DNA of 63,852 nt, counting the filler, from Candidatus Coatesbacteria bacterium (GTDB lineage Bacteria > JAFGND01), in assembly GCA_016927185.1 (NCBI GenBank). It is 4 parts of 4 records of this genome, joined end to end, with 100 filler letters (N's around TTAATTAATTAA, not from the genome) between each part and the next. Parts side by side here need not be neighbours in the genome. Positions count along the whole stretch, not along the records: positions 1 to 16,251 come from JAFGND010000100.1; 3 more parts are not named here. One strand, given 5' to 3'. The translations under genes and the position numbers were made by a program. The first letter of the stretch is position 1. Every line of letters begins with the position of its first letter. The notes under the pieces were generated by a model. That model searched no databases. It saw only the letters and a list, made by a program, of their open reading frames with translations, and was not told where the DNA came from. Positions 955 through 19,995 of the stretch are shown here, piece after piece.

Positions 955-1049
955 ACATTTCTCCTTTCCTAAAGATTTGATATCGTAGAAATAAATTGCA
1001 AACATAAATGTCAAGCAAATAATGATATCTGGCAAGAAAAAGATACTTC

Positions 1050-1078
1050 TTGACAAAGGAGACTATACTATATATGCT
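1050..1078 (+). promoter_or_regulatory. Sigma70-type promoter upstream of the AAA ATPase
   Basis: TTGACA-17nt-TATGCT, about 40 nt upstream of the ATG at 1118. Confidence 0.55.
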
Positions 1079-1117
1079 AACTTTTAAAGGATAGGAATTG
1101 AATAAAAAGGATGGTAT

Positions 1118-2860
1118 ATGACTAATTTCAAACTTCCGGAGTTTTCAAAAACAATAATTGAAAAATATAAATCATTCCAGAATAATCAATTTTTGTTATA
1201 TGGAAATATCAATGACATTTATCCTTACGAAGAGGATAATTATCTGCCGTTAAATGAATTTCTGGAAAAAGCATTGATACTTCCTGAATATAAGCAGGTT
1301 AAGAAAATCATCATAAATTATGACCTGGCAAAAGGCCTTGAAATTCCCTATCCAGAAGACAAGGAACTTTTACAAACAGAATTTTCACCTAATCTGCTTG
1401 ACCAGGCTGTAGTAAGAAGCATAAATAATCCATTAATCGCATTGAATTTTCTCGTTGAGGCAACCAAAAGAACATTTTATAGATTTGTTGAAAATGAGAA
1501 TCAGTCAAAAGCAGAGGTTGTCCCTTTGGCGATAATAATTAAATATGCAGATTCATTATTGCCTGAAGGTACATTTGACAGATTATCAGATACTGACAGG
1601 CAGAGAATTACTCTGTTTCTGGAATGGTTCAGCAGCAGAAAATTCTCACACAGTACTAATATAGTATTTCTGATAAGTGAAACGCTTTCATCAGTAAATT
1701 ATAAGATAAGGGATCTGCCTTACCTGGCTCCTATAATGGTCACTAGACCTAATTCAGAGATGCGCGAAAATTTTATAGAAAAAATGCAGAATGAATACAA
1801 TCTGGAATTAAACATGGAAATAAAGCAGGTATCTTTTTTTACTGCAGGCCTTTCTCTGGTGAATATTCAGCAAATATTTAATCAGGCATCATATTCAAAG
1901 ATACCGTTAACAGTAGATTCTATTTTCTCTAAAACCAAGGAAATAATTGAGAAAGAGCTTTCAGGACATGTAGAAATCCAGGATATTGACTATGGATTTG
2001 AAAAGGTTATTGGAGCTACAAAATTGAAAAACAAGCTAATTGAAATAAAAAAGTGCATAGACAGCGGAAACGTAGATCTTATGCCAACTGGTATACTTGT
2101 TCCAGGTCCTAATGGAGTAGGAAAGACTTTCATTTTCAAGGCATTCGCGAAAGAATGTGGCTGGATAACTGTTGTCTTGAAAAATATAAGGGGAGCATAT
2201 GTTGGTGAAACAGAATCAAGATGGGAGATGATAAGGAATGTTCTGGAAAGTATGGGCAAGGTTCTTGTATTTTATGACGAAGCAGACACTCAACTAGGAG
2301 GTAGAGGACCTTATACCCATGATGTGGATAAGAGATTGTTCGGCTCAATCATGTCAATGATGAGTGCGAATAAGAACAGGGGAAGAATTATCTGGATAAT
2401 AATAACTGCAAGACCTGATAAACTGGAACCTGACATAAAAAGATCAGGAAGGGCAGGGGAGCATCTTGCAGTATTTGATCCAGAAGATGATGAAAAAGAT
2501 GATTTCCTGGAATGGATTCTCAAGAAGGTTGGGATAGAATGGAATACTCTCTCTGATGAAGAAAAAAAAGGATTTCTTGAAAAAACTAATTCATACAGTG
2601 CTGCAGATTATGAAGAGTTGCTCCATCACTGTCAGAGAAGAAAATTCATATGTGGCGAATTTGGTCTGGATGAACTTTTCAAGGAAGTCAGTAATTTCAT
2701 CCCAACAGATATTTCTCTTCAAAGGGAGCTTCAGCAGCTGGTTGCTCTTGTAGAATGTACTACTGCAGATCTTATCCCATCCAAATTCAAAGATCTCTCC
2801 AAGGCAGATGCTTTTGAGAGGATAAGGGAGATAAAAAATATACTGAGAGAGGATATATAG
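1118..2860 (+). CDS. AAA+ family ATPase
   Basis: Walker A GPNGVGKT, Walker B VFYDEAD, YVGETE pore loop, RSGR arginine finger; degenerate N-terminal AAA-like region. Confidence 0.85.
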   Translation: MTNFKLPEFSKTIIEKYKSFQNNQFLLYGNINDIYPYEEDNYLPLNEFLEKALILPEYKQVKKIIINYDLAKGLEIPYPEDKELLQTEFSPNLLDQAVVRSINNPLIALNFLVEATKRTFYRFVENENQSKAEVVPLAIIIKYADSLLPEGTFDRLSDTDRQRITLFLEWFSSRKFSHSTNIVFLISETLSSVNYKIRDLPYLAPIMVTRPNSEMRENFIEKMQNEYNLELNMEIKQVSFFTAGLSLVNIQQIFNQASYSKIPLTVDSIFSKTKEIIEKELSGHVEIQDIDYGFEKVIGATKLKNKLIEIKKCIDSGNVDLMPTGILVPGPNGVGKTFIFKAFAKECGWITVVLKNIRGAYVGETESRWEMIRNVLESMGKVLVFYDEADTQLGGRGPYTHDVDKRLFGSIMSMMSANKNRGRIIWIIITARPDKLEPDIKRSGRAGEHLAVFDPEDDEKDDFLEWILKKVGIEWNTLSDEEKKGFLEKTNSYSAADYEELLHHCQRRKFICGEFGLDELFKEVSNFIPTDISLQRELQQLVALVECTTADLIPSKFKDLSKADAFERIREIKNILREDI

Positions 2861-2861
2861 A

Positions 2862-3623
2862 TTGGAAAAAGAGCAATTCGAAGCTTTCGATGAGTTCGAG
2901 GATAATCACTGGTGGTTCAAAGCAAGACGAAAAATCATAACAGATATAATTGATGAAATCACAGAAAGGAATCCTGAGGTTTTCATATTTGAAATTGGAA
3001 TGGGAACAGGTGGAACCCTGAGGGATTTATCCAGATTTTATAAGGTTGCAGGCAGTGATATCTCACCAGATGCAGTTGAGAAAGCGAAAAAGAGAGTTCC
3101 TGAAGCGAAAATAATACTTGGCAGAGCTCCTGATGACATTGTTGAATTCATAGAGAGAACCGATGTATTATTGCTTCTGGATGTACTTGAACATGTTGAA
3201 AAAGACAAGGAATGGTTTGACAGTATTTTTACAAAACTCAAGCAGAATGCTTATTTAATATTAACTGTTCCAGCGAGAAGGGATTTATGGTCTCCGCATG
3301 ATGTGTCAAACAAGCATTACAGAAGATATGAAAAAAAAGAATTCAGGGATCTCTTTAGTAATCTTGATATAGAAGTACTTCTTTTTAGTTTTTTCAACAC
3401 AAAACTGTATCCATTGATAAAACTTATCAGAATTATAACTAATATGAAGGGTTCATCATCAGGACATGGGGGAATGGATTTATTCATGCCACCAGCATTC
3501 CTGAACAATCTCTTTTACAATATTTTCAAAAGCGAAAAAAAGACTCTGTTTGAAGCTATGCTTAATGCACAAAAACCTTACTCTAACGGGACTAGCTTGA
3601 TTGCAGTAATAAAAAAGAAATAA
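2862..3623 (+). CDS. Class I SAM-dependent methyltransferase (cell-surface glycan-associated type)
   Basis: E.NHWWF..R, EIGMGTG, LDVLEHV, LTVPA...WSPHD...HYRRY motifs; TTG start. Confidence 0.8.
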   Translation: MEKEQFEAFDEFEDNHWWFKARRKIITDIIDEITERNPEVFIFEIGMGTGGTLRDLSRFYKVAGSDISPDAVEKAKKRVPEAKIILGRAPDDIVEFIERTDVLLLLDVLEHVEKDKEWFDSIFTKLKQNAYLILTVPARRDLWSPHDVSNKHYRRYEKKEFRDLFSNLDIEVLLFSFFNTKLYPLIKLIRIITNMKGSSSGHGGMDLFMPPAFLNNLFYNIFKSEKKTLFEAMLNAQKPYSNGTSLIAVIKKK

Positions 3624-5357
3624 TTACATCTCTTCTGGTGGATCTATTCCAAGCAGGTTTAAACCCGTTTTCAAGATTTCGGAAACTGCTTTAATCAATT
3701 GCAATCTAGCTGCTGCTAAACCTCTGTCTGCCTTGAGAACAGAACAATTATGATAGAATTTGGAAAAATCTTTTGATAGTTTCAGAAGATATTTGCATAA
3801 TTCATCTATGCAATAGTCATTTGCAACGTGTTCTATAATATCAGGAAATTCCTGTATATCCATAATTACATATTTTTCTTCAGACATTGTGAGAAGATGG
3901 CTGTTATCAAAGTCTGGTTCAATTTCCATTCCTGATTTTTCAGATTTTCTCAGGATGGATTGTATTCTTGCGAATGCATAAAGAATGTAGGGACCAGTGT
4001 CACCTTCGAATGAAAGCCAGTCCTCCATCCTGAATTCTATATTTTTCTTCACATCCTGATCAAGCATACCGAATTTTATGGCAGCAACAATTATTTTTCT
4101 TGATGTTACTTTCTTCTTCTCATCACTCCAGTCTTTCTTTGAATCAAGATAACTTTCGTAAATATATTCATTCATGGATTTCTTAAGATCTGAGAAAAGG
4201 ACTACATTACCTGTTCTGGAACTCATTTTCCCTTCAGGTAATGATACCATCCCGTATGCAAGATGATAGCATTTATCAGCCTGCTTGAATCCCATTTTTT
4301 TCAAGATGGAGAAGATCTGCTTGAAATGAAGTGATTGAGCATCCCCTACAACATATATTGATCTATCAATATGGAATTCTTCGAATTTCCGCTTAGCCAG
4401 GGCAAGATCCTTTGTTGAATAAAGAGTTGTTCCATCGCTTTTCAATACAATTGCCAGGGGTAAATCCTCTAATTCACAAATAACAGCCCCATCAGAATAC
4501 TTGAAAATTCTTTTATTCAGGAATTCTTCAACTATCACTTTTCCAGGTTCCTCTTCCTCGCTTTCATAAAACCAGACATCAAAATGAATATCAAGCCATT
4601 TATAGATACTCTTGAAATACTCAATAGACCATTCCCTGGTCTCATTCCATAAGCATATCCAGTATGGGTCCTTATTTTCAAGAAGCTTCTGAACCTTACT
4701 TACATTGTTCTTTTCGGTGGGATTCTCTTCAAGATACTTTTTCGCTTCTGTATATACTATTCCAAGCCATTCACCTTTTTCAGAGTTATTGGTATTTTCC
4801 ATTTTGCTTTTTTCATAATGCCAGAGACAAGCTGCAATATGAGCTCCACTATCACCAAGATAGTTGGCAGAAATAGTCTCGTAACCTGTATGCCTGAGTA
4901 TCCTAATCAAGGAATCTCCAACAGCCATATTTCTTATATGACCAATGTGTATTCCTTTATGAGTATTTGGCTGAGAGAATTCAACCATTATTTTGTCTTG
5001 CTTCTTTTCAAAAGGTTTTGTCAGTGATCCTTTTTTTGAACAAATCAGAACTGCTTTTGAAAGATTCTTTTCATTCAGGAAAAAATTAAGATAAGGACCA
5101 GTTTGTTCAACTTTCTTAAAGATATCATCCTCAGAGAATATCATTTTCATTGACAATTCATTTGCTATCATCTGGGGAGATTTCTTTAATTCTCTGGCTA
5201 ACAAAAAACAGGAAAATGCCATGTCTCCCATTTCAGGTTTGGGGGGCAGGCTTATCTGTTTATTGATTGTAACTTCTTCAATATCCAGATTGAATATCCA
5301 TTTTATATTATCTTTAAGCAGATTTCTTAAACTCGTATAAATGATGCTTCTCTGCAT
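3624..5357 (-). CDS. argS: Arginine--tRNA ligase
   Basis: PNTHKGIHIGH (HIGH), KMSSR, GDTGPYILYAFARIQSI and a C-terminal PEEM. Confidence 0.97.
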   Translation of the reverse strand: MQRSIIYTSLRNLLKDNIKWIFNLDIEEVTINKQISLPPKPEMGDMAFSCFLLARELKKSPQMIANELSMKMIFSEDDIFKKVEQTGPYLNFFLNEKNLSKAVLICSKKGSLTKPFEKKQDKIMVEFSQPNTHKGIHIGHIRNMAVGDSLIRILRHTGYETISANYLGDSGAHIAACLWHYEKSKMENTNNSEKGEWLGIVYTEAKKYLEENPTEKNNVSKVQKLLENKDPYWICLWNETREWSIEYFKSIYKWLDIHFDVWFYESEEEEPGKVIVEEFLNKRIFKYSDGAVICELEDLPLAIVLKSDGTTLYSTKDLALAKRKFEEFHIDRSIYVVGDAQSLHFKQIFSILKKMGFKQADKCYHLAYGMVSLPEGKMSSRTGNVVLFSDLKKSMNEYIYESYLDSKKDWSDEKKKVTSRKIIVAAIKFGMLDQDVKKNIEFRMEDWLSFEGDTGPYILYAFARIQSILRKSEKSGMEIEPDFDNSHLLTMSEEKYVIMDIQEFPDIIEHVANDYCIDELCKYLLKLSKDFSKFYHNCSVLKADRGLAAARLQLIKAVSEILKTGLNLLGIDPPEEM

Positions 5358-5480
5358 AACCGTCCTTTGTTTAAAGTAAGCTATTTCTATAAAGTGCTTA
5401 GATAACTGAAGTTTATTCTTGACTTAAAATGTCAATAGACGTGTTAATCTATTGCATTTGTTGACGAAAATGGAGACCTA

Positions 5481-6518
5481 ATGAAAAAGGCACTAATTAC
5501 AGGAATAACTGGACAAGATGGATCATATCTGACTGAATTGCTTATAGAGAAAGGTTATGAAGTGCATGGTATAGTGAGAAGGATATCAACCTTCAACACA
5601 AAGAGAATAGACTATCTTTTTCACTCAAGACATTATAACAAGAAATTCTTTACTCATTATGGTGATTTAACTGATCCAAACAGTATTAACAGGCTTGTCC
5701 TTGAAATCAAACCGGATGAGATTTACAATCTGGCTGCACAAAGTCACGTAAAAGTATCCTTTGAAATTCCTAATTATACATCACAAGTTGATGCACTTGG
5801 TTCCTTGTATGTTCTCGAGGCTGTAAGGAATTGTTGCCCTGAATGCAAAGTTTATCAGGCATCAACTTCAGAGATGTTTGGGGGAATAAAAGGGGAAATC
5901 CCGAAAGAAGGTTACGATGAGAATATTCCTTTTCATCCTCGAAGTCCTTATGGAGTATCAAAATTATTCGGATACTGGATAACAAGGAATTACAGGGAAG
6001 CTTATGATATCTTCGGTTCAAATGGAATTCTTTTCAATCACGAAAGTCCGAGAAGGGGAGAGACTTTTGTAACAAGAAAGATAACAAAATGGTGCGGTGA
6101 TTATCTTGCAAATCCTTGGGAAACACCTCCTCTCCAGCTAGGTAACTTGAACGCTTATCGTGACTGGGGACATGCAAAGGACTTTGTAAGAGCTATGTGG
6201 ATGATCCTTCAAGCACCACAAGCTGATGATTGGGTTGTTTCCACTGGAGAAACCTATACAGTAAAGGATTTTGTAGAAAAATGCTTTGATTGGATGGGCA
6301 AGGAAATCCACTGGGAAGGAGAGGGTATTAATGAAGTTGGAATAGTGGATGACAAGAAAGTGGTATCAGTTAATCCAAAATATTTCAGACCGACTGAAGT
6401 TGATTTCCTGCTAGGGAACAGCAGAAAGATAAGGGAAGAACTGGGCTGGAAACCTGAATACTCATTCAAGAATCTTGTTGAAGATATGATGGAAAATGAT
6501 TCAAAAAACAGGGAATAA
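5481..6518 (+). CDS. gmd: GDP-mannose 4,6-dehydratase
   Basis: ALITGITGQDGSYL, YNLAAQSHV, PRSPYGVSK, NHESPRRGETFVTRKI. Confidence 0.97.
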   Translation: MKKALITGITGQDGSYLTELLIEKGYEVHGIVRRISTFNTKRIDYLFHSRHYNKKFFTHYGDLTDPNSINRLVLEIKPDEIYNLAAQSHVKVSFEIPNYTSQVDALGSLYVLEAVRNCCPECKVYQASTSEMFGGIKGEIPKEGYDENIPFHPRSPYGVSKLFGYWITRNYREAYDIFGSNGILFNHESPRRGETFVTRKITKWCGDYLANPWETPPLQLGNLNAYRDWGHAKDFVRAMWMILQAPQADDWVVSTGETYTVKDFVEKCFDWMGKEIHWEGEGINEVGIVDDKKVVSVNPKYFRPTEVDFLLGNSRKIREELGWKPEYSFKNLVEDMMENDSKNRE

Positions 6519-6530
6519 AAAGGAAAGAAA

Positions 6531-7472
6531 ATGGATAAGAAAAGCAGGATACTGATACTAGGGTCAACTGGAATGGTTGGCGGTTCTATTGTAAGACAAT
6601 TGAAAAAGCTGGAATATAGCAATTTGTTGCTACCTGATGAATTTATGCTTGATTTAACGAATCAGGAAAGTGTCATGAGGTATTTTAGGGAAAATGAACC
6701 CGAATATGTCTTTCTTGCAGCGGCAAAGGTGGGAGGAATTTATGCAAACTCCACTCAGCAGGCTGACTTCGGATATATAAACGGGATGATTGAGCTAAAT
6801 ATCATTTATGCAGCTTATAAATTCAAGGTAAAAAAGCTGTTGTTTTTAGGATCAAGCTGTATATATCCTAGAGATTGCCCCCAACCTATAAAAGAGGAAT
6901 ATCTCTTGACTGGTAAACTAGAACAAACTAATGAGATGTATGCACTTGCGAAAATACTTGGCTTGAAATTGTGCGAGGCATATAATCTGCAATACAAAAC
7001 AAATTTCATAAGCTGTATGCCAACTAATTTATATGGAATAAATGATAATTTTGATTTGCAGAATAGTCATGTCCTACCTGCATTGATAAGGAAATTTCAT
7101 GAAGCCAGAGCAGAAAACAAAAGCCAAGTTGAAGTCTGGGGTACCGGAAAACCAAGAAGGGAATTCCTGTTTGTTGATGATCTGGCTGATGCATGTGTAT
7201 TCCTTATGAACAATTATAATTCAAATGATACAATAAATGTTGGCTGCGGATTTGATGTTACAATCAAGGAGCTTGCCGAAACCATAAAGGATATAACAGG
7301 ATTTAGTGGCGATATTCACTGGAATATCGAAAAACCTGATGGAACTCCGAGAAAGATACTTGATGTTTCAAGGATCAATGAAATAGGTTGGAAAGCAAGA
7401 ACCGGTTTAAGAGAAGGTCTTGAAATAACATATAAATGGTTTATTGATAATCAAGATAAGATAAGGAAATAA
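6531..7472 (+). CDS. fcl: GDP-L-fucose synthase
   Basis: GSTGMVG, AAKVGGI, LGSSCIYP, SHVLPALIRKF, VWGTGKPRREF; directly follows gmd. Confidence 0.95.
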   Translation: MDKKSRILILGSTGMVGGSIVRQLKKLEYSNLLLPDEFMLDLTNQESVMRYFRENEPEYVFLAAAKVGGIYANSTQQADFGYINGMIELNIIYAAYKFKVKKLLFLGSSCIYPRDCPQPIKEEYLLTGKLEQTNEMYALAKILGLKLCEAYNLQYKTNFISCMPTNLYGINDNFDLQNSHVLPALIRKFHEARAENKSQVEVWGTGKPRREFLFVDDLADACVFLMNNYNSNDTINVGCGFDVTIKELAETIKDITGFSGDIHWNIEKPDGTPRKILDVSRINEIGWKARTGLREGLEITYKWFIDNQDKIRK

Positions 7473-7482
7473 GGAGGTTTAT

Positions 7483-8205
7483 ATGTATAAAAATGAAAGT
7501 GATTTCTTGAATGCCCTTGAAAGAGGAGACAGAAAAGCATTAAAAGCTTTTTATGACAGATTGTCTTTACAGAATGAAGATTCTGATTTTTATAAAGAGA
7601 TTGATGAAATAGTAACAAGGAAGAACAGGGAGGAATTGACAGAATTCATAAACCGAAAAAGTGGAGTGGATTATAACTCTTTTCTGAAAACCGCTCCTGT
7701 TAATATTCTCTTGATTTTCTTCCTGATGGCAATGCTTTTCTCTGCCTGCAATAAATCTTCCTTCAGTCAGGAATCAGAAACTAAAATTACCCAAACAGAA
7801 AGCAATCTTCTGAATGCTGAAAGCACTGATTATAATGAAGATGAGTCAAGTTCTTCGGATTCTACTGATATAGAAAAACTAAGAGGAAAGGTTTATATTT
7901 ATATTGTGAAAGCTCAGCTTCCAACCGGAGAAAAAAGAAGACTGAAAGCAGTACTGAAAAAAGCATCCAGGCAGACAATAGTTGATAACAAAAGCGACTT
8001 ATCAAAGCTTTTTAAGGAAAATGATCCTGAAAAGATTGCCCAGCTGCTGGAGGAAATGATATTGTTTCAGGCAGCTAATGAAACAAGCCCTATTAATCCC
8101 AATATTCATGTGAAATATAAAGGCGTAGATTTTTCTGAAAATTCTGATAGTCTTAACAAATTACCCAAGCCTGTTCCCGCTTACAAGGGTGTTGACTTTT
8201 CTTGA
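7483..8205 (+). CDS. Lipoprotein-like protein with duplicated C-terminal YKGVDFS motif; putative substrate of the adjacent radical SAM enzymes
   Basis: Strong RBS (AAGGAGG). About 70-aa soluble N-terminus, hydrophobic segment ending LFSAC (Cys89), acidic Ser-rich linker, two YKGVDFS copies at the C-terminus. Confidence 0.7.
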   Translation: MYKNESDFLNALERGDRKALKAFYDRLSLQNEDSDFYKEIDEIVTRKNREELTEFINRKSGVDYNSFLKTAPVNILLIFFLMAMLFSACNKSSFSQESETKITQTESNLLNAESTDYNEDESSSSDSTDIEKLRGKVYIYIVKAQLPTGEKRRLKAVLKKASRQTIVDNKSDLSKLFKENDPEKIAQLLEEMILFQAANETSPINPNIHVKYKGVDFSENSDSLNKLPKPVPAYKGVDFS

Positions 8206-8210
8206 GATAA

Positions 8211-9293
8211 ATGCTTTTCCTGTTAAAGAGAATAAAGAGAATCCCAATCTATTGTGTCTGGGAAATAACAAATGCCTGTAATTTGCGTTGCGTTCATTGT
8301 GAATCATCTTCTGGCAAACCAAGAAAAGATGAATTGACTACTGAAGAAGCTCTTTCTTTATGCAATGATTTGAAGGAAATCGGGACAAGAAAAATCAATT
8401 TATCAGGTGGAGAACCTCTTGTCAGAAAAGACTGGAAAATAATCGCTTCCAGATTGAAAGAACTTGGGCTGGAAGTCAATCTGATAACCAACGGTCTTCT
8501 ATTCAACAAGGAAATTGTGCAATTTTGTCTTGATATCAATATTGACTGGATATCGATAAGCATTGATGGAATGCCTGAAACTCACGATTCAATAAGGCTT
8601 TTCCCAGGGAAAAGAAAGGATATGTCACCTTTCAGAAGTGCTTATCAGGCACTTGTTCTGTCAAAGTCGAGCGGTTTGAAAACGAGCGTTATAACCCATA
8701 TAAATGGCAGGAATTTAAACGAACTTAATGAACTTCATGAATTATTATCTATAATACCAATAGATGGATGGCAGCTGCAGTTAGGAACTCCGCAGGGAAG
8801 AATGAAAAATACAGAGGAGAATTACCTGATATCTCCATCTAAACTTCCTTATATAGCTGAATTCATTATGCATAAGCAGTTAAGGCCTTTCAAGATCGTT
8901 TCAACCGATGATATTGGATATTATACTGAATATGAACCTTATTTAAGAGATTCGGGAAAAGATTATATCCCCTACTGGGTGGGTTGTTATGCTGGAATAC
9001 TTGGAATTGCAATAGAAAGTAATGGGGATGTTAAAGGCTGTCCATCAATGCCTTCCTGGATGAATGAAGGAAATATAAGGAAAAGAAAGTTGAAGGATAT
9101 ATGGGAAGATGATAATCTATTCGCATATAACAGAAAATGGAATGGAAAATACTTGAAGGGATTCTGCAGAAAGTGCGAATTCAGGAGAATCTGCAGAGCT
9201 GGTTGCAAGTCGTTTGCATTGGCATCAACTGGTTCCATCTATGAAAACAAGCACTGTTTGTACAGAGTGCAGGCACTAGGATTGAAGGATTGA
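8211..9293 (+). CDS. Radical SAM/SPASM domain protein (peptide/protein-modifying type)
   Basis: WEITNACNLRCVHC, SGGEPL, DDIGYY; SPASM cysteines CYAG...GDVKGCPS...CRKC...CRAGC...HC. Confidence 0.92.
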   Translation: MLFLLKRIKRIPIYCVWEITNACNLRCVHCESSSGKPRKDELTTEEALSLCNDLKEIGTRKINLSGGEPLVRKDWKIIASRLKELGLEVNLITNGLLFNKEIVQFCLDINIDWISISIDGMPETHDSIRLFPGKRKDMSPFRSAYQALVLSKSSGLKTSVITHINGRNLNELNELHELLSIIPIDGWQLQLGTPQGRMKNTEENYLISPSKLPYIAEFIMHKQLRPFKIVSTDDIGYYTEYEPYLRDSGKDYIPYWVGCYAGILGIAIESNGDVKGCPSMPSWMNEGNIRKRKLKDIWEDDNLFAYNRKWNGKYLKGFCRKCEFRRICRAGCKSFALASTGSIYENKHCLYRVQALGLKD

Positions 9294-9294
9294 A

Positions 9295-10362
9295 TTGAAT
9301 ATCAGAAATCCACAATATCTTGTATGGGAATTCACACTAGCTTGTAATATGAGATGCAAGCTTTGTGGAAGTTCAGCTGGCAAACCGAGAAAAAATGAAC
9401 TTAATACTCAGGAAGTAATGAAATTATGTGAGCAAATCAGGGAACTCAAGGTAAACAGGATAAGCCTTATGGGAGGGGAACCTTTTATAAGGAATGACTG
9501 GGAGCTAGTGCTGGATTTCTTTCATGGAACTGAACAGGAAGTTGAGTTTATTTCAAATGGATTGCTGGTTGACAAGAAGATTGCAAAGAAACTGAGGCAT
9601 TATGATATTTACGGAATTTCCTTTTCCCTTGATGGAACCGAGGAAATCAATGACAAACTCAGGAATTTCAAAGGGAGTTACAAGGCGATAAGGAGAGCAG
9701 TTGAAACATGCCAGGAAGAGGGTTTGAGAGTAGGCATCATTTCACAGATAAACAAATATAATATCAATAGCATTAAGGAATTGTATAATATTCTTGTTGA
9801 ATGGCAGATTGATGGATGGCAAATCCAGTTAACTAATCCGCTTGGTAATGCAAAAGCATCGAAATTGATAGTTGATGAAGATGATATAATACTCCTGCAT
9901 GACAGTATTCTAGAGATTCCAAAAGACAGGCAACTTGATATTTTCTTTGCTGATGATATTGGTTATTTTTGTGATTATGAACCTTTCCTTAGAAGCAGCT
10001 ACCTGCAGAATGGTGTATGGCTTGGTTGTCAGGCAGGACTGCTGGTCTCTGGCTTGACAAGTGATGGAGGTGTAAAGGGATGTCTCAGCCTTCCGGATGA
10101 GTTCATAGAAGATAATGTAAGAAAAAGGTCATTTGTGGAAATCTGGAATGACAAGAATCTCTTTTCCTATAACAGGATTGGACATGAGCTCCATGGTTTT
10201 TGCAGGGAATGCGATTTTGCAAAGCTGTGCAAGGGAGGATGCAGCAGTCTTGCATATTCAACAATGGGGCATTTAGGTGAGATAAAGCATTGCTGGCACA
10301 GGATTATGAAATCTCGATCACAACAGGACAGTGATCAGAACCCATTACATCCTCAAGAATGA
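9295..10362 (+). CDS. Second radical SAM/SPASM domain protein, paralog of the upstream gene
   Basis: WEFTLACNMRCKLC, MGGEPF, DDIGYF; SPASM CQAG...GGVKGCLSL...CRECD...CKGGC...HC; TTG start 1 nt after the previous stop. Confidence 0.92.
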   Translation: MNIRNPQYLVWEFTLACNMRCKLCGSSAGKPRKNELNTQEVMKLCEQIRELKVNRISLMGGEPFIRNDWELVLDFFHGTEQEVEFISNGLLVDKKIAKKLRHYDIYGISFSLDGTEEINDKLRNFKGSYKAIRRAVETCQEEGLRVGIISQINKYNINSIKELYNILVEWQIDGWQIQLTNPLGNAKASKLIVDEDDIILLHDSILEIPKDRQLDIFFADDIGYFCDYEPFLRSSYLQNGVWLGCQAGLLVSGLTSDGGVKGCLSLPDEFIEDNVRKRSFVEIWNDKNLFSYNRIGHELHGFCRECDFAKLCKGGCSSLAYSTMGHLGEIKHCWHRIMKSRSQQDSDQNPLHPQE

Positions 10363-11065
10363 ATGATTTTTGTATCTTGTCTTTGAAATTCTTGCTGACA
10401 AAGAAATAATCAATCCTCCAGCCTATATTCCTCTCTCTTGCTCTTGTTTTATAATCCCACCAGCTGTAATGTCCTGCTTCCTTGACAAACATTCTGTATG
10501 TATCAATATAACCATTTTTTACGAATTTATCCATCCATGCTCTTTCTATTGGAAGAAAGCCTGATGTATTTTCATTTTCTTTTGGTCTTGCGAGATCTAT
10601 TTCGTGGTGTGCTGTATTGAAATCACCGCATATAATCAGTTTCTTGCCTTTTTGTAACAAACTGTTAGCGAAATCAAGAAAAGCATCATAAAATGCCAGT
10701 TTATAATCGAGCCTTTCCTTAGACATCTGCCCATTTGGATAATAGATATTAATGAGAGTGAATTCCTTGTAATGTATTATCAGGTTTCTTCCTTCATTAT
10801 CAAATCTTTCTATTCCTAATTTTGTTTCCACTTTATCAGGTTTCTTCTTTGAAAAAACTGCTACCCCACTGTAGCCTTTTCTTTCTGCAAACGAGTAATA
10901 TTTCTCGTATTCTTTCAGATCATTTATTTCTGGAGGGATTTGATCTCCCTGCAATTTTGTTTCCTGAAGGCAAACTATTTCTGGTTTGAAATCATCTATC
11001 CATTCAACAAATCCTTTTTTCATGATTGCCCTTAGACCATTTACATTCCAGGAAGTGATTTTCAT
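10304..11065 (-). CDS. xth: Exodeoxyribonuclease III / AP endonuclease
   Basis: SWNVNGLRA, CLQETK, GYSGV, CGDFN, GWRIDYF, GSDHCP. Confidence 0.96.
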   Translation of the reverse strand: MKITSWNVNGLRAIMKKGFVEWIDDFKPEIVCLQETKLQGDQIPPEINDLKEYEKYYSFAERKGYSGVAVFSKKKPDKVETKLGIERFDNEGRNLIIHYKEFTLINIYYPNGQMSKERLDYKLAFYDAFLDFANSLLQKGKKLIICGDFNTAHHEIDLARPKENENTSGFLPIERAWMDKFVKNGYIDTYRMFVKEAGHYSWWDYKTRARERNIGWRIDYFFVSKNFKDKIQKSFILEDVMGSDHCPVVIEIS

Positions 11066-11090
11066 ATATTTTCCTTTCCAAATAATCCTT

Positions 11091-12227
11091 TTAAAAGACG
11101 ATAGATAACTTCAAATTGTTAACAACTCTACCGATTTTTTCAGGATCATATTCACTATATCTTTTTCCTTCAATAATTCCAAGTGAAATGTCAAGACTGG
11201 TATTCTTGAATATTGACCATTTTACATGTGGAGTAATAACAAAAGAATCATCATTGATATTTATCAATCCTGCAATCAAATATGAAACAAGAATGTTTGG
11301 TGAATAAGATATCTCAATAATGCCATAATGAATTCCCTTATAAAAATCATCAGGTCTGTAATCAGATGTATCTTTGAATCCATAACCATTATAAAAGTAT
11401 TCGCCTAACATAAACAGCCTGTTTTCAAGAAAACTGTAATCTGCTCCTAACGTGAATTGTATCCTGTCCTTGAAACTATTTTTTTCAAGAGGATAGGTTC
11501 TGTAAAATCTGTAAAGCCCTTCTCCATGTACTCCAAGCAATAAATCTCCCTTGAAATCCAAACCAGCTACCTGGGGGTGACTTCCTGTTTCACTTCCTTC
11601 GAGATCCTTGCCTCTGTAAGAATATGATAATCCCATATCTAAGGATTCAATATTCAGATGTGATCGTATTCCAAGTTCACTGTGTCCTGGCCATTTATCA
11701 AGGATTGTCAGCAATGTTACATCAGATAATAACGCAAGAGGAAAGGAAAATTTCAATGCATCAATTCCCTTTCTTTCTGCAGTCATATCAAGGGAATTCA
11801 AATGATTGAAGAAATCAAGTGGTCTGAAATAGACACCTTGACCCCACGGTACTCTCTGCCTTCCTACGGTCATTTCACCTTTGCTAACTGGGATTGTTAT
11901 ATAAAGTCTTGATATTTCAATCAGCCCATTATCTATCCATTCCTTGAAAGTCTCGAATTGAGGAGGAATGTATTCTGTTTCGAAAGGATTTTGCGTTCCA
12001 GAAAGCAGGTAAAAATCAAGGGAACTGTAATATCTGACTTGTTTCTTATCAGGTTCTGAATAAGGACTTTCAAGCATCAATCTTATCCTGTTTTTCCAGC
12101 CCCATTCAAACTTCTTGCTTGTATCATAGACGATTATATCATCAATTTTTTCTTCCCCACTGAAATTGATTTCTTTGTTGCAGAAGAGTGAAAGCAGTAT
12201 TATTTCTATAATTAGACTTGCTATCAT
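11091..12227 (-). CDS. Hypothetical outer-membrane beta-barrel-like protein linked to the Lol-like ABC cluster
   Basis: VGRQRVPWGQG, alternating beta-strand pattern, C-terminal Phe; last gene of the ABC/LolA-like operon. Confidence 0.55.
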   Translation of the reverse strand: MIASLIIEIILLSLFCNKEINFSGEEKIDDIIVYDTSKKFEWGWKNRIRLMLESPYSEPDKKQVRYYSSLDFYLLSGTQNPFETEYIPPQFETFKEWIDNGLIEISRLYITIPVSKGEMTVGRQRVPWGQGVYFRPLDFFNHLNSLDMTAERKGIDALKFSFPLALLSDVTLLTILDKWPGHSELGIRSHLNIESLDMGLSYSYRGKDLEGSETGSHPQVAGLDFKGDLLLGVHGEGLYRFYRTYPLEKNSFKDRIQFTLGADYSFLENRLFMLGEYFYNGYGFKDTSDYRPDDFYKGIHYGIIEISYSPNILVSYLIAGLININDDSFVITPHVKWSIFKNTSLDISLGIIEGKRYSEYDPEKIGRVVNNLKLSIVF

Positions 12228-12943
12228 GGCTTGAGGCTTTGTCTTGAAAATACGCTTTCATCAATTGCTACATCAAATTCGTACTGATAGATACCAAATT
12301 CAGTATAAGTATTCTTTCTCAGTACATTCTGAACTGTCATTTTTATTGGATAGTTCCTTTTCCCAACAGTCTTTATTTCATCGATTGTCATTATTCTCAA
12401 AAGTTTTCCGGATCTTGAATACCTTTCTTCTCTTAGTGCAACGAACCTTGATTTATCAATCCAGATTTTTCTTCTGTAATAAGTCAAATTACTTGTTTTT
12501 GCTTTAAGATCAAGCACATAGCAGTTCTTTCCATTTATTTCATCATCTTCTTCCTGTGAAATAGAATATCTTTCTTTCAGTTTTTGATTTTCAAGAGCAT
12601 CTTCATAAGAAAGATCGCTTCCCATCATACTTTCTCTTAGCATATGCCCTGATATTTTCATAATCTCCTCTGCTTCAGGAAAATATATCCACAATGATCC
12701 TTCTCTCTTGAGATATCTCACTCCCTTGTCTTCACTGTTGGTAAATATGATGAATGCTTTGTCTTTTCCTTTTGCCCAGGTTTTGTATGTCTTGGTTCTT
12801 GTTTCAGTTCCTATGTGTATTGTCATTTTCCCGTTATATCTTGCAGAAGTAAAAACCATGTTATCATCAACTTTCTGCAATATCTCATCCGGAGTTAATG
12901 CAAATAATTGGGACATAAAAAAAACCAATAATAAAACCATCAT
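12224..12943 (-). CDS. Outer membrane lipoprotein-sorting (LolA-like) protein
   Basis: Signal peptide, EILQKVD, KGVRYLK, LWIYFP, MMGSDLSYED, RKIWID. Confidence 0.85.
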   Translation of the reverse strand: MMVLLLVFFMSQLFALTPDEILQKVDDNMVFTSARYNGKMTIHIGTETRTKTYKTWAKGKDKAFIIFTNSEDKGVRYLKREGSLWIYFPEAEEIMKISGHMLRESMMGSDLSYEDALENQKLKERYSISQEEDDEINGKNCYVLDLKAKTSNLTYYRRKIWIDKSRFVALREERYSRSGKLLRIMTIDEIKTVGKRNYPIKMTVQNVLRKNTYTEFGIYQYEFDVAIDESVFSRQSLKP

Positions 12944-12953
12944 TTTTCCATCC

Positions 12954-14168
12954 TTATCCTCTTATTGCCTCAATGGCATTTTGTTTTGAAGCCAATCTTG
13001 CTGGTATTAGATTGGCAAGGCATGAAACAACAAAACCAATCAAGATAGAAACATAGATATTCCGTAAATTAAGCCTTGGATAAAGTACCGATGAAATTGG
13101 CATATCCACATTTTTTCCAAGGGATTGTATATTAATCCCGAAATATCCTAAAATTAATGAGCAGATACTTCCCATGATAGCACCAACGATGCATCCTAAA
13201 ACAGTTAGCACCAAACCTTCCAGCCAGAAAAGCGATAGAATTTCTATCCTGTTCAACCCCATGGCATTCAATATCCCGATTTCTTTTTTTCTCTCAAAAA
13301 CTATCATTATCATTGTATTGAGAATTACAAAACATGCAAGAGCAATTATTATGAAATAAAAAATCTGGTATATCGCAAAAGCAGTCTGGAATAATTTGTA
13401 CCAGTCACCCTGTTCCTGCCACGTCCTGATTATATAATCCTTTTTCAAATCTGTTTTCAGATCTTTTGCAATATTATCTGCATTGTCAATATTTTTTATA
13501 TAAATCAGTTGTTCAGTTGTCTTGTTTTTCATTCTTAGAAGATTTTGTGCATCATTAATATCTACCACGAACATGTTTTCATCAAAGCTGCTGAGTCCGA
13601 AATCCATCTCCCCAAGTATCTTGAATTTCATTGCATTAAGACCACCTTCTGATGTTACTGTTACAACAAGGATTCGGTCATTCAAACTCAGTTTCATTTT
13701 CTTCATCAATCCCTTACCCATAAGGATATTCTTTTTTTCATCATTGAAAAAGCTTCCTGATTTCACCTTTTTATCAAGCTTAAGAATCTCTTTGGCATCA
13801 TTCTTCTTTATCGCATATCCAAGAGCAAATTTGTTTTTTCCTTCGTTATATAACATCACTCCAAAATTTATTCTCGGTGAAATATGGATTATAGAACTAT
13901 TTTCTATTACAAGTGTATCAGGGATATTCATAGAGAGATTGTTTAGTCTTTCCTCTTTGTAATATCCTGTATCAACAATTTTTATATGGCCTAGTTGAAA
14001 ATCCGTCAATCCTTCCAAGACTGAAGTGAAGACTCCAGTTATATAACTTCTTACGAAAATAACTGAACCAACTCCTAAAGCTATAGAAAGTACAGCAAGA
14101 AGTGATCTTTTCTGATTTCTCCAGATATTCCTGTATGCTATCACTAGCAATAATTGAATCCTATACAT
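12954..14168 (-). CDS. ABC transporter permease, FtsX/LolE/MacB family
   Basis: IAYRNIWRNQKRS, ERKKEIGILNAMG, PARLAS; start moved to ATG 14168, which overlaps the upstream stop. Confidence 0.9.
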   Translation of the reverse strand: MYRIQLLLVIAYRNIWRNQKRSLLAVLSIALGVGSVIFVRSYITGVFTSVLEGLTDFQLGHIKIVDTGYYKEERLNNLSMNIPDTLVIENSSIIHISPRINFGVMLYNEGKNKFALGYAIKKNDAKEILKLDKKVKSGSFFNDEKKNILMGKGLMKKMKLSLNDRILVVTVTSEGGLNAMKFKILGEMDFGLSSFDENMFVVDINDAQNLLRMKNKTTEQLIYIKNIDNADNIAKDLKTDLKKDYIIRTWQEQGDWYKLFQTAFAIYQIFYFIIIALACFVILNTMIMIVFERKKEIGILNAMGLNRIEILSLFWLEGLVLTVLGCIVGAIMGSICSLILGYFGINIQSLGKNVDMPISSVLYPRLNLRNIYVSILIGFVVSCLANLIPARLASKQNAIEAIRG

Positions 14169-15417
14169 AATGCAGCGCCTCGACAACATTTAGCCTTGAT
14201 GCTTTTATTGCTGGGAATAAACTAAATAAACCTGATATAAAAACACCGAAACAAAATGCAAAAATAAAAGCATCTGGATTCCATGCTCCGTGAAAAACCA
14301 TTTTCATGGGGTAACCCAGGTCATTATTCTGAGATAGTTTTTCGAACATTTTCAGAGTAAGTCCATAATTGACAAGGTATAAGTTAATTGCCGAAGCTAT
14401 AATCAGACCTATAGTACTTCCAAATACCCCTATGCATATTCCCTCAAGCACTATCATCAAGATCATTTGCGTTTTCTGGACTCCCAAGGCAAAAATCATC
14501 CCTAGTTCTCTTATTCTTTCTAATATTGAAAGAAGAAGGGCATTGGATGTTCCAAGAGAAGCTATTAGAAGAAGTATCAAAATCAGAACGTTTGAAAATG
14601 CTCGTTTTGTTTTATTGATTGCTATGAAATCAGCACCCAGAACATACCATGGTTTTACATCATATTTATCAATTTTAGTATTTTTTTTCAGGATTTCAAC
14701 AGTATAATCTACTTTTTCCATATTTTGAATTTTTAATACCACTTCTGTAATTGATTTATTCATGTTCAACTGTTTTTGAAGGTAAGAGAGTGGAATGAAT
14801 ATTGTATTCCTGTTTATTTTAGGATTGGGAGAATCTATTATTCCGATAATTTTTGCATCAAAAGCAGAGATTGTTTTTCCACCTTTTTCTCTTGTCATAA
14901 CAGTCACCATGTCACCTATTTTCAAGCCCAGATCTCTTGCAACAAGATGACCGATAATTGCTTCTGCAGAGTCAGTTGAAGAGAAGTATTCTCCCTGAAC
15001 GTATTTTTTCAGATTGAATACAAGTTCATCTCTATCCGGGTCTATGCCATAACCTTCAATGGGAATCTGATTCACACCATTTCCAAGCTGACAGAAAAAG
15101 GATATTCTGAAAGTAAACTCATTCAGATTGGCTTCCTTAAGGGTATCTGATATTTTTTCAGGATCTTCGATTGTATAATCAAGATTTTTCAAGTCTTTCT
15201 CTGAGAAAAAACTGGGATGGAATATCTTGAGCATCCCTGTTTCAAGTTCTACCAGGTTTTTTGTTGCTTCAATATCAACTCCAATAAAGAATGAATCAGT
15301 AATTATGAAGGAAGTTATAGAAATACCAATTACAAAGGCTGTTGTCAATGTCCTGTGCCATCTTCTTGAAAGATTTTTCCAGGCAAGTTTTACAATAAAT
15401 AGAAAATATCTTGTCAT
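14161..15417 (-). CDS. ABC transporter permease, FtsX/LolC/MacB family
   Basis: LAWKNLSRR, ERIRELGMIFALG, PAIKASRLNVVEAL. Confidence 0.9.
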   Translation of the reverse strand: MTRYFLFIVKLAWKNLSRRWHRTLTTAFVIGISITSFIITDSFFIGVDIEATKNLVELETGMLKIFHPSFFSEKDLKNLDYTIEDPEKISDTLKEANLNEFTFRISFFCQLGNGVNQIPIEGYGIDPDRDELVFNLKKYVQGEYFSSTDSAEAIIGHLVARDLGLKIGDMVTVMTREKGGKTISAFDAKIIGIIDSPNPKINRNTIFIPLSYLQKQLNMNKSITEVVLKIQNMEKVDYTVEILKKNTKIDKYDVKPWYVLGADFIAINKTKRAFSNVLILILLLIASLGTSNALLLSILERIRELGMIFALGVQKTQMILMIVLEGICIGVFGSTIGLIIASAINLYLVNYGLTLKMFEKLSQNNDLGYPMKMVFHGAWNPDAFIFAFCFGVFISGLFSLFPAIKASRLNVVEALHYV

Positions 15418-16100
15418 TTCACCTCATCTTTACTGATAAATCCGTCCTTGAGAGTAACAATCCGCTTTGCAAATTCCATTACCAGTTTATCATGAGTTGA
15501 GAATATGAAAGTGGTATTGTATTTTTTGTTAAGATCCAGCATCAGATTCAATATCTCCTCAGCAGTTTTTGAATCAAGATTGGCAGTTGGTTCATCTGCA
15601 AGTATGATTGAAGGATTTTTAACCAATGCCCTTGCAATTGCTACTCTCTGTTGCTGACCACCAGACAGCAGGTCAGGTCTTCTGTATTTTTGCTCTTCTA
15701 AGCCAACTTCATCCATAATCATGTTGACTTTGCTTTTTATATCATTATTTTGCATAAGCCCTTCAAGCAAAAGAGGGAACTCGACATTCTCGAATGCAGT
15801 TAATACAGGTATTAAATTGTATGACTGGAAAATAAACCCTATCTTTTTTCTCCTGAGTACGGCCTGTTCCTTATATGAAAATTTTGCAAGATTGGAGTTT
15901 TCCAGGAAAATCTCACCTGAAGTCGGTTTATCAAGAGAGCCAATAAGGTTCAGTAATGTAGTTTTTCCTGATCCAGATGGTCCTACCAGGGACAGGAATT
16001 CTCCATTATCTATTTTCAGGTTTATATCTTTAAGTGCATGTACATTAACTTTTCCGATAGTGTATATCTTGTTTATATTGACCAATTCTATTAATGCCAT
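15414..16100 (-). CDS. ABC transporter ATP-binding protein, LolD/MacB family
   Basis: GPSGSGKT, LSGGQQQR, ADEPTANLD, STHD; start placed at ATG 16100 behind an AAGGAG RBS. Confidence 0.95.
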   Translation of the reverse strand: MALIELVNINKIYTIGKVNVHALKDINLKIDNGEFLSLVGPSGSGKTTLLNLIGSLDKPTSGEIFLENSNLAKFSYKEQAVLRRKKIGFIFQSYNLIPVLTAFENVEFPLLLEGLMQNNDIKSKVNMIMDEVGLEEQKYRRPDLLSGGQQQRVAIARALVKNPSIILADEPTANLDSKTAEEILNLMLDLNKKYNTTFIFSTHDKLVMEFAKRIVTLKDGFISKDEVK

Positions 16101-16179
16101 AAATCTCCTTCGGCAATTCATTGTGTCTCGTTCAAATAAGAGGTAATCTTTCTTGAAATAAATGTTTTCAGCCTTAATC

Positions 16180-16208
16180 AAAAAAAACCCTCTACAAGAG
16201 AGGGTTTT
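16180..16208 (-). terminator. Rho-independent terminator
   Basis: AAAACCCTCT/AGAGGGTTTT stem followed by a T-run on the minus strand. Confidence 0.7.
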
Positions 16209-16251
16209 ATAGAGTTATATTTTGTCAAGTATTAGTGATGAAGAATTCTGC

Positions 16252-19820: not shown

Positions 19821-19894
<74 letters not shown>

Positions 19895-19921
19895 ATTGAC
19901 AAAAAAACGCTGAATATTAAA

Positions 19922-19995
19922 TCGGGGAGAGAGGATTTGAACCTCCGGCATCATGGTCCCAAACCATGCGCGCTACCGGGCTGCGCCACTCCCCG
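19922..19995 (-). tRNA. tRNA-Pro(TGG)
   Basis: CGGGGAG/CTCCCCG acceptor stem, anticodon loop TTTGGGA, T-loop GGTTCAAATCC; CCA not encoded. Confidence 0.95.

Follow-up and report, generated by a model that had tools for sequence, protein, structure and literature searches.

A lipoprotein-type protein with a conserved tyrosine motif and two radical SAM/SPASM enzymes form a candidate maturation cassette

The locus described here lies in a 63,852-nucleotide stretch of DNA from a Candidatus Coatesbacteria bacterium (GCA_016927185.1), composed of parts of four records joined by filler; this whole stretch is referred to as the window, and its positions 1 to 16,251, which contain the locus, derive from JAFGND010000100.1. 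Three tightly spaced open reading frames (ORFs) on the plus strand, separated by gaps of 5 and 1 nt, encode a 240-residue protein, referred to as the substrate according to its predicted role, and two radical S-adenosylmethionine (rSAM) enzymes with a SPASM domain, rSAM-A and rSAM-B (Table 1). A first-pass annotation of this DNA had read these genes as a candidate protein-modification system, in which two paralogous enzymes act on a lipoprotein-like substrate that ends in two identical YKGVDFS heptapeptides. Translation bears out the ORF and both heptapeptides, and the enzymes are indeed paralogs with 40% identity over 347 residues, pass the Pfam cut-offs for both domains and can each be read to contain the DDIGY and GC.AG...G.VKGC motifs pointed out there. 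A ribosome-binding site, AAGGAGG, is located 5 nt ahead of the substrate ATG, where it overlaps the stop codon of an upstream GDP-fucose synthase gene, and backs translation of the long N-terminal part of the substrate. The rSAM-B gene starts with TTG, preceded by AAGGA. In a public-collection record of this enzyme (P0136), the protein is shorter (337 residues) and would begin at Met19, within the CX3CX2C motif; as this start would cut the motif, the TTG start is preferable.

The substrate is built from two helical domains flanking a hydrophobic segment with a lipobox and a disordered linker, followed by the extended, motif-bearing tail; its AlphaFold2 (AF2) model has a mean predicted local distance difference test (pLDDT) score of 72.3. 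The hydrophobic segment at residues 73-89 is predicted to serve either as a lipoprotein-type signal in an internal position or as a signal anchor. A pattern scan of 30 family ORFs detected a hydrophobic stretch with lipobox in 26, and one more (P0130) was recognized by eye; the near-invariance of the lipobox Cys within the family agrees with the lipoprotein-like character assigned initially. Cys89 is also the single Cys of the substrate in the window. The conserved helical domain ahead of the hydrophobic stretch, which the first-pass annotation had overlooked, comprises ~70 residues and up to ~140 in high-GC members; some of the latter, not the window protein, contain R-R or K-R followed by F or Y ahead of the hydrophobic stretch, which raises the idea of twin-arginine export.

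At its C-terminus the substrate reads ...KYKGVDFS, 15 further residues, YKGVDFS and stop. Five of the seven codons differ between the two heptapeptide copies and all differences are synonymous, which indicates that the peptide has been kept by selection and does not reflect a recent DNA duplication. Across 15 family representatives the consensus tail is x-Y-K-G-[VAIT]-x-F, with an invariant Tyr (15/15) and nearly invariant Lys, Gly, and Phe residues, and no other part of this generally divergent protein is as well conserved. Exceptions are Y-K-A in P0130 and Y-G-G in P0132, and a Gly follows within two residues of Tyr in 14 of the 15. A role of the tail as C-terminal PDZ or beta-signal-like ligand was tentatively set aside, as the motif is trailed by 0-9 further residues and one of its copies is internal.

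Table 1 Features of the cassette in the window and sulfatase-family genes at related loci (L-numbered loci in their own coordinates)
Feature	Position	Strand	Basis
Ribosome-binding site AAGGAGG	7471..7477	+	Sequence read; 5 nt ahead of substrate ATG (7483)
Substrate (putative precursor) protein, 240 aa	7483..8205	+	ORF; family without Pfam/NCBIfam model; 15 representatives share architecture
N-terminal helical domain, residues 1-70	7483..7692	+	AF2 helices 5-70, block pLDDT 82-95; conserved in homologs; residues 9-48 are the best-defined rSAM-A interface
Hydrophobic segment ending in lipobox L-F-S-A-C (residues 85-89, Cys89)	7699..7749	+	Hydrophobic helix 73-89; Cys nearly invariant
Low-complexity disordered linker, residues 90-125	7750..7857	+	pLDDT <50 for 94-125; length and sequence vary among homologs
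Second helical domain, residues 126-200	7858..8082	+	AF2 helices, conserved blocks; residues 170-197 contact rSAM-A in model
Core motif copy 1, YKGVDFS (Tyr212)	8116..8136	+	ORF translation; Tyr invariant 15/15
Core motif copy 2, YKGVDFS (Tyr234), C-terminus	8182..8202	+	Second copy in 6/15 representatives
rSAM/SPASM enzyme A, 360 aa	8211..9293	+	Family models, A-clade in tree, predicted substrate binding
rSAM/SPASM enzyme B, 355 aa, TTG start	9295..10362	+	Family models, B-clade in tree
Sulfatase-family gene	L035 347-1807	-	PF00884
Sulfatase-family gene	L036 ~13600-14833	+	PF00884
Sulfatase-family gene	L038 8374-9828	+	PF00884
Sulfatase-family gene	L040 11151-12737	+	PF00884
Sulfatase-family gene	L043 4802-7663	-	PF00884

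The substrate matches no Pfam or NCBIfam model (NCBIfam at E up to 0.01), and Pfam searches at E up to 1 over all 15 family members yielded no family in more than one of them. A word-based search returned three relatives besides the window protein (of 397 candidates, four passed at E up to 0.001), and a profile search of 1.84 billion representatives recovered 15 proteins at E up to 0.001, 13 of them at E up to 1e-30. Comparison of the substrate model with the PDB via Foldseek gave no match at E up to 0.001, and the ESM Atlas offered no usable feature match and structure rows with TM scores of 0.33 or less. An anti-sigma factor was considered and set aside, with RseA and MucA appearing among the Foldseek rows at probabilities of 0.04 and 0.01 and no sigma gene nearby. 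Scans of metagenome contigs with the substrate alignment and with the relative P0002 located no further locus. No model among Pfam and NCBIfam describes the substrate-rSAM family, and neither does any paper found in our literature search, whose scope did not extend to Scott et al. 2022 (splicease types) or to supplements of any paper.

Both enzymes match the Pfam families Radical_SAM (PF04055; 87.7 bits for rSAM-A and 74.9 for rSAM-B, cut-off 29.5) and SPASM (PF13186; 32.1 and 24.3 bits, cut-off 21.5), and judged by these domains they belong to the SPASM subfamily of the radical SAM superfamily. The CX3CX2C motif is formed by C23/C27/C30 in rSAM-A and C17/C21/C24 in rSAM-B, and the seven rSAM-A SPASM cysteines C259, C277, C319, C322, C328, C332, and C349, a set typical of a domain with two auxiliary 4Fe-4S clusters, do not vary among 30 A-type sequences. 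With cluster motifs beginning at residues 23 and 17, neither protein has an N-terminal extension fit for a recognition element (RRE) of the kind that binds precursors of RiPPs (peptides made by the ribosome and modified after translation). The final ~20 residues of rSAM-B lie outside the region aligned to homologs, and the 3' end of its gene overlaps that of a convergent exonuclease III gene by 59 nt (window 10304-10362). The nearest solved structures are SkfB and PqqE, with similarity confined to the rSAM core.

In an NCBIfam scan, neither enzyme attains any curated cut-off. The best model for both is TIGR04103 (222.4 bits for rSAM-A and 221.3 for rSAM-B versus a cut-off of 725), which is presumably the PlpX splicease family. 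TIGR03913 ranks second for both (212.7 and 197.3 bits versus 591.75) and first for the A-type enzyme at L040. A comparison with TIGR03913 and TIGR04133 had been proposed in the first-pass annotation; both enzymes stay below the cut-offs of the two models (TIGR04133: 145.5 and 140.1 bits versus 425). The lower-ranked models, at 116-165 bits, are AhbD, TIGR04133, NirJ-type models and then MftC for rSAM-A, and MftC, TIGR04133, and AhbD for rSAM-B, with AhbD at 164.3 and 130.1 bits (cut-off 500), NirJ at 137.8 and 116.7 bits (cut-off 515), and the mycofactocin maturase MftC at 125.4 and 140.5 bits (cut-off 265) for rSAM-A and rSAM-B, respectively.

Complex formation between rSAM-A (30-row alignment) and the full-length substrate (15-row alignment) was modeled. 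The predicted complex reaches a score of 0.79 (0.75, 0.79, and 0.80 in individual runs), compared with 0.02 for the best of three controls; this mark is attained by 58 of 80 solved complexes and by 2 of 110 mismatched pairs, a calibration that is rough given the use of custom alignments. Runs share at least 26% of contacts, with a partner pLDDT of 59 or more. Contacts of lowest error connect substrate residues 12-48 with rSAM-A residues 138-155 and 174-183, and a second patch is formed by substrate residues 170-197 and rSAM-A residues 226, 238-257, 323-327, and 351-355. The model thus supports binding of the substrate to rSAM-A, and since its N-terminal domain docks on the enzyme there, this domain appears to behave as a leader-like docking module.

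Scanning a genome collection with rSAM-A led to a metagenome-assembled genome (MAG) labeled 'uncultured delta proteobacterium' (G001). Its match (L001, 6001-7647, plus strand) is an rSAM/SPASM protein 39% identical to rSAM-A and fused to a C-terminal tetratricopeptide repeat (TPR) region, encoded between CheA/CheW-like and GlgC-like genes without a substrate-like neighbor; TPR-fused forms are frequent among the database matches. Another contig of the same genome harbors a substrate homolog ending in Y-K-G-V-S-F-P-D, followed by two rSAM genes. We scanned 401 genomes of this phylum, which is unrelated to that of the window, with a substrate profile and obtained matches in 33 at E up to 0.001. 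The N- and/or C-terminal domain is matched in seven of these, and most of the 33 matches cover hydrophobic and linker positions only and were treated as spurious. At 12 loci examined, we identified 15 substrate-like ORFs, 11 of them ending in [PA]-x-Y-K-G-[VAI]-[AS]-F and four in a poly-Asp run and His. The gene order substrate, A, B recurs in high-GC MAGs, at six Y-K-G loci besides the window (L005, L035, L036, L038, L040, and L043), with three tandem substrates, two A-type and one B-type rSAM at L036. The Y-K-G ORFs at L037, L041, and L044 are orphans, whose genomes hold a full cassette elsewhere.

An A-type enzyme profile matches 148 of the 401 genomes at E up to 1e-60, with scores falling in steps, so that the wider rSAM superfamily is evidently common. 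Matches of at least 418 bits are confined to eight genomes, the very ones in which a Y-x-G substrate was found. Among 24 further loci matched by the profile, only the two best (L052 and L053) have an A score far above their B score, and at both a substrate-like ORF lies directly upstream of the A-type rSAM; the remaining 22 are single rSAM genes with no substrate-like neighbor within ~1.5 kb. The first-pass annotation had suggested examining homolog neighborhoods for a motif-bearing ORF, and such an ORF precedes the enzyme gene directly at all nine A-clade loci (window, G001, L035, L036, L038, L040, L043, L052/L087, and L053/L086). An intact B-type gene stands beside the A-type gene at seven of the nine; it is split over two frames at one and cut by the contig end at another. 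The split gene belongs to L053/L086, whose substrate tail reads Y-L-G-V-R-F; here the N- and C-terminal halves of the B-type rSAM lie in different frames (L086 778-2669, minus strand), owing to a frameshift, a pseudogene or an assembly error. In the L052/L087 variant (L087 952-2706, plus strand; the contig ends within the A-type rSAM), both helical segments precede the hydrophobic stretch, and the lipobox Cys is directly followed by Y-K-G-V-T-P-E-A and stop. The exported part of this protein would therefore be the motif alone, a lipidated nonapeptide. A-clade enzymes occur in MAGs assigned by their sources to Myxococcota, Deltaproteobacteria, Planctomycetota, and Pseudomonadota.

A maximum-likelihood tree computed quickly from 82 enzyme sequences (LG+G4, with Shimodaira-Hasegawa-like approximate likelihood-ratio test (SH-aLRT) support only) separates the two types. 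The A clade (43 rows, SH-aLRT 97) includes rSAM-A, every A-type enzyme of the cassettes and 21 of the 22 top database matches that were sampled; the B clade (12 rows, SH-aLRT 98) holds rSAM-B, two close relatives and all cassette B-type enzymes. These separate, well-supported clades suggest that A and B are old, separately conserved partners. Enzymes encoded with the poly-Asp/His substrates form separate lineages adjoining the A clade, so the tail type shifts with enzyme lineage; the TPR-fused enzyme (L001) is placed elsewhere. A true TIGR04103 member was found in none of the 14 control genomes, nor in G001 or G220, and the tree was built without characterized spliceases.

The sister substrates with a poly-Asp run and C-terminal His (plus strand in L039, 7838-8548 and 9652-10308; L045, 8193-8990; L042, 8669-9493; and L078, 1-1105) share the N-terminal domain, lipobox and helical domain with the Y-K-G family, and two of them end in C-Y-[DE]-G, Asp residues, and H. 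They come with two rSAM lineages of their own and a sulfatase-family gene. A gene of this family (PF00884) also follows rSAM-B directly in five high-GC cassettes (Table 1). The encoded protein has no signal peptide and a Thr at the formylglycine Cys/Ser position, in a motif without Arg; it may be a tailoring enzyme. No homolog of it was found in the window. A role of rSAM-B akin to an anaerobic sulfatase-maturating enzyme was set aside on account of this absence and of the motif, which has Thr/Ser and lacks Arg. More distant loci of the same phylum contain small ORFs on the minus strand (L080 8742-9248, L081 8580-8816, and L082 8723-9239) with P-P-Y-x-x-G-x-x-Y-G-L-[IV]-[KR]-R tails; downstream of them, a large helical protein and two related rSAM/SPASM enzymes are encoded. 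By sequence the small ORFs resemble spliceotide-type precursors on which two enzymes would act, and these enzymes have the same sub-threshold best matches as those in the window. Tyr-Gly type cores thus seem to recur in this enzyme superfamily.

Upstream of the cassette, genes for a GDP-mannose 4,6-dehydratase (gmd) and a GDP-fucose-synthase-like epimerase (fcl) occupy 5481-7472 on the plus strand; fcl ends 10 nt ahead of the substrate gene with no terminator-like site in between, and co-transcription of gmd-fcl with the cassette is possible. The convergent exonuclease III gene (xth) lies downstream, followed on the minus strand (11091-16181) by genes for a 378-residue protein without Pfam match, a LolA-like lipoprotein-sorting protein, two FtsX/MacB-type permeases, and an ABC ATPase. 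The proximity of this lipoprotein-handling cluster to a lipoprotein-type precursor may be coincidence. None of these neighbors (gmd, fcl, exonuclease III, or the LolA/FtsX/ABC cluster) is kept beside the cassette at the other loci compared, and a functional tie to gmd-fcl was set aside for this reason. A promoter and terminator scan of positions 5300-10600 performed no better than shuffled sequences (18 versus 16.9 and 5 versus 3.2). Two tandem tRNA genes (19821-19995, minus strand) are the sole Rfam matches in the window. Near-identical DNA is present in sediment, biogas-fermenter, and other metagenomes of four studies, one of which may be where the window itself comes from, with no RNA data set among the sequencing runs listed.

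Taken together, the three genes are probably a cassette that matures a lipoprotein-type protein of ribosomal origin, an rSAM-based RiPP-lipoprotein hybrid in which Tyr would be modified prior to export and lipidation. The precursor would be made in the cytoplasm, and its N-terminal helical domain, aided by the second helical domain, would dock on rSAM-A. Both rSAM-A and rSAM-B, as cytoplasmic SPASM enzymes with presumably three Fe-S clusters each, would act on the C-terminal core x-Y-K-G-[VAIT]-x-F, whose invariant Tyr is the most likely site of modification. The protein would then be directed to the membrane by its internal, lipobox-containing hydrophobic segment, and there the lipobox Cys would be lipidated and signal peptidase II would cut off everything upstream, docking domain included. 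The putative end product, a lipid-anchored protein, would display one or two modified Tyr motifs at its free C-terminus. Tandem copies (L036), orphan copies (L037, L041, and L044) and the synonymous divergence of the heptapeptides are precursor-like traits. The initial proposal of a modification system is supported in part, by the conserved cassette, the tail motif, the lipobox, enzymes that stay below all known-family cut-offs and modeled docking. Of the chemistries that it gave as examples, a Tyr-Lys crosslink is unlikely to be universal, since Gly takes the place of Lys in P0132 and Leu does so in L053.

With an invariant Tyr, a near-invariant Gly at +2 and an aromatic residue at +5, the motif points to a Tyr-centered reaction in a tight turn. 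Among specific candidates, we tentatively place first a C-C or C-O crosslink centered on Tyr, or a transformation of its side chain. A non-canonical, tyramine-type backbone splice seems improbable; the Y-K-G sequence had been judged not to be a canonical splice site, and x-Y-G is indeed absent from the window protein. The remainder of our expectation goes to other kinds of chemistry. A thioether can be excluded for the window protein, because the lipobox Cys is its only Cys.

Several points weigh against this maturation scheme, the support for modification being wholly computational. A lipoprotein signal in an internal position, with 70 to ~140 residues ahead of it, is unusual and Lgt/Lsp processing is putative; the hydrophobic segment could be a plain transmembrane anchor, leaving the docking domain attached. 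If export were co-translational, cytoplasmic enzymes would be short of time to act on a C-terminal tail. The tail itself is modeled with a pLDDT of only ~56-62 and the Y-K-G sequence is not among the confident contacts of the complex. Four of the 15 substrate-like ORFs lack Y-K-G, and the association between enzyme pair and motif-bearing ORF, complete among A-clade orthologs, does not extend to the distant rSAM pairs at L076, L077, and L079-L083, next to which no family substrate was detectable. For the low-GC relatives nearest to the window, linkage of substrate and enzyme is given by equal contig sizes only (P0002/P0007, 2957; P0003/P0009, 5744; P0006/P0138, 3996), and with two close B-type orthologs against 13 of the A type, rSAM-B may not be universal in that branch. 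Lastly, the sulfatase-family gene found in five high-GC loci and absent from the window implies that the pathway differs between loci.

Some of these observations would fit a spliceotide-type system, in which a splicease recognizes the variant site x-Y-K-G in place of x-Y-G. The top rank of TIGR04103 for both enzymes agrees with this idea, as do the invariant Tyr with Gly within two residues in 14 of 15 representatives, the V-Y-G-G tail of P0132, which is a canonical x-Y-G, and the sister rSAM pairs that adjoin small x-Y-G-L peptides in the phylum of the high-GC loci. Moreover, an enzyme without RRE on which a helical leader docks, as in our model, recalls binary spliceases as presented in the accessible text of PMC11414181. 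Against this stand scores below one third of the curated cut-off, a Lys (Leu in L053) that separates Tyr from Gly in every member except one and so breaks the x-Y-G rule, Pfam scans that find no Nif11 or NHLP leader in the substrate, and the fact that described systems need one rSAM rather than two conserved paralogs. We consider such a splicease unlikely.

We assign a similarly low likelihood to the 240-residue protein being a membrane-anchored scaffold, recruiter or regulator of both rSAMs, whose true substrate would be a lipid, a cofactor, or another protein. It is the folded helical domains and not the tail that form the confident interface of the predicted complex, and a cytoplasmic helical domain joined by one hydrophobic segment to an outer domain recalls single-pass regulators, RseA and MucA being among the Foldseek rows, but at the very low probabilities given above; AhbD and NirJ models are also among the weaker enzyme matches. 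A scaffold would, however, hardly account for the finding that the best-conserved short element is a tail motif lying beyond the folded domains, present twice in 6 of 15 representatives and preserved through synonymous change, for tandem and orphan copies as typical of precursors, for a tail type that changes with the rSAM lineage, or for the L052 variant, which carries only the motif past the lipobox; nor are cofactor-pathway genes conserved nearby at the loci compared. If the enzymes were cofactor-biosynthesis rSAMs of the AhbC/AhbD/NirJ type, their adjacency to the ORF would be without functional meaning. Apart from the AhbD scores and NirJ-type models at 116-138 bits, the data speak against this: these models are not the closest, their scores lie far under cut-offs of 500-650 and under the peptide-maturase models, different phyla keep the gene order, with the genes tightly spaced or overlapping, the window neighborhood yielded no haem or d1 genes, and the controlled complex model backs binding of the substrate. 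A grouping with such enzymes, which the first-pass annotation had named as evidence against its proposal, is not apparent from these scores, and this explanation is highly improbable.

rSAM/SPASM enzymes are a main source of new peptide chemistry, and RiPP-lipoprotein hybrids were shown only in 2026 and, according to the accessible text of PMC13056109, for MNIO enzymes only. If correct, the maturation scheme proposed here would carry the logic of RiPP-lipoproteins over to radical SAM enzymes and a substrate of protein size. The cassette may, tentatively, stand for a new class of rSAM RiPP-lipoproteins with a detachable docking domain, two SPASM enzymes and a Tyr-derived structure not yet described, lipid-anchored at the envelope; that structure could be a crosslink, a group resembling a quinone, or the outcome of a backbone splice at a non-x-Y-G site. 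Assets of the cassette are a motif that is short, portable and contains a single invariant Tyr, a pair of enzymes with separable steps, and a docking domain predicted to be recognized alone; a non-canonical splice or a new Tyr crosslink would be useful for protein engineering, as spliceases already are. The spread of A-clade enzymes among MAGs, together with the placement of 21 of 22 sampled top matches in this clade, points to a widespread, unstudied envelope feature of anaerobic and sediment bacteria.

Among known systems, spliceases (PlpX, RhaX; presumably TIGR04103, 'nif11-class peptide radical SAM maturase 3') are rSAM/SPASM enzymes like those in the window, for which TIGR04103 is the top-scoring curated model, and their target in a ribosomal precursor is a Tyr adjacent to Gly, with protein-sized substrates possible. 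They differ in the site, which is Y-K-G in the window instead of x-Y-G, in score (222 and 221 bits versus 725), in the two conserved paralogs present here, and in the precursor, here a 240-residue lipobox protein without Nif11 or NHLP leader. The lack of an RRE and a leader helix binding the enzyme are traits of binary spliceases, in which, in the accessible text of Richter et al. 2024 (PMC11414181), the helix occupies an activating site on the enzyme. TIGR03913, the 'GDL motif peptide-associated radical SAM/SPASM maturase', is the second-best model, but its cut-off is not reached and no GDL motif is present in the substrate. TIGR04133, whose short name 'rSAM_w_lipo' points to a lipoprotein partner, likewise describes rSAM/SPASM enzymes; the scores here fall short of its cut-off (425), and the substrate has no match to any NCBIfam model. 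A methanogen SPASM rSAM reportedly installs thioether crosslinks on a full-size protein (PMC13692751); such a system resembles the cassette in the size of its substrate and differs in needing Cys, so that with a lone lipobox Cys in the window protein a thioether cannot be the reaction conserved in the family.

The closest parallel on the lipoprotein side is provided by DAG-RiPPs, whose precursors, some of them proteins >30 kDa, undergo modification by cytoplasmic MNIO enzymes before Lgt/Lsp/Lnt lipidate them and remove the signal, as the accessible text of PMC13056109 (PNAS 2026) reports; the mining described in that text covered the MNIO family only and the terms 'radical SAM', 'rSAM', and 'SPASM' do not occur in it. 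In these hybrids, such as DybA/DybH, a cytoplasmic enzyme modifies a C-terminal motif of a lipobox precursor, to which the hydrophobic stretch and lipobox Cys upstream of the core in the window protein correspond. Unlike the MNIOs described there, which act on Cys motifs in precursors with N-terminal signal peptides, the cassette pairs two rSAMs with a Tyr-centered core and places a docking domain of 70 to ~140 residues ahead of the signal. The cassette thus brings together rSAM/SPASM maturation of ribosomal products and the RiPP-lipoprotein hybrid, each a known idea, in a combination that has no earlier description.

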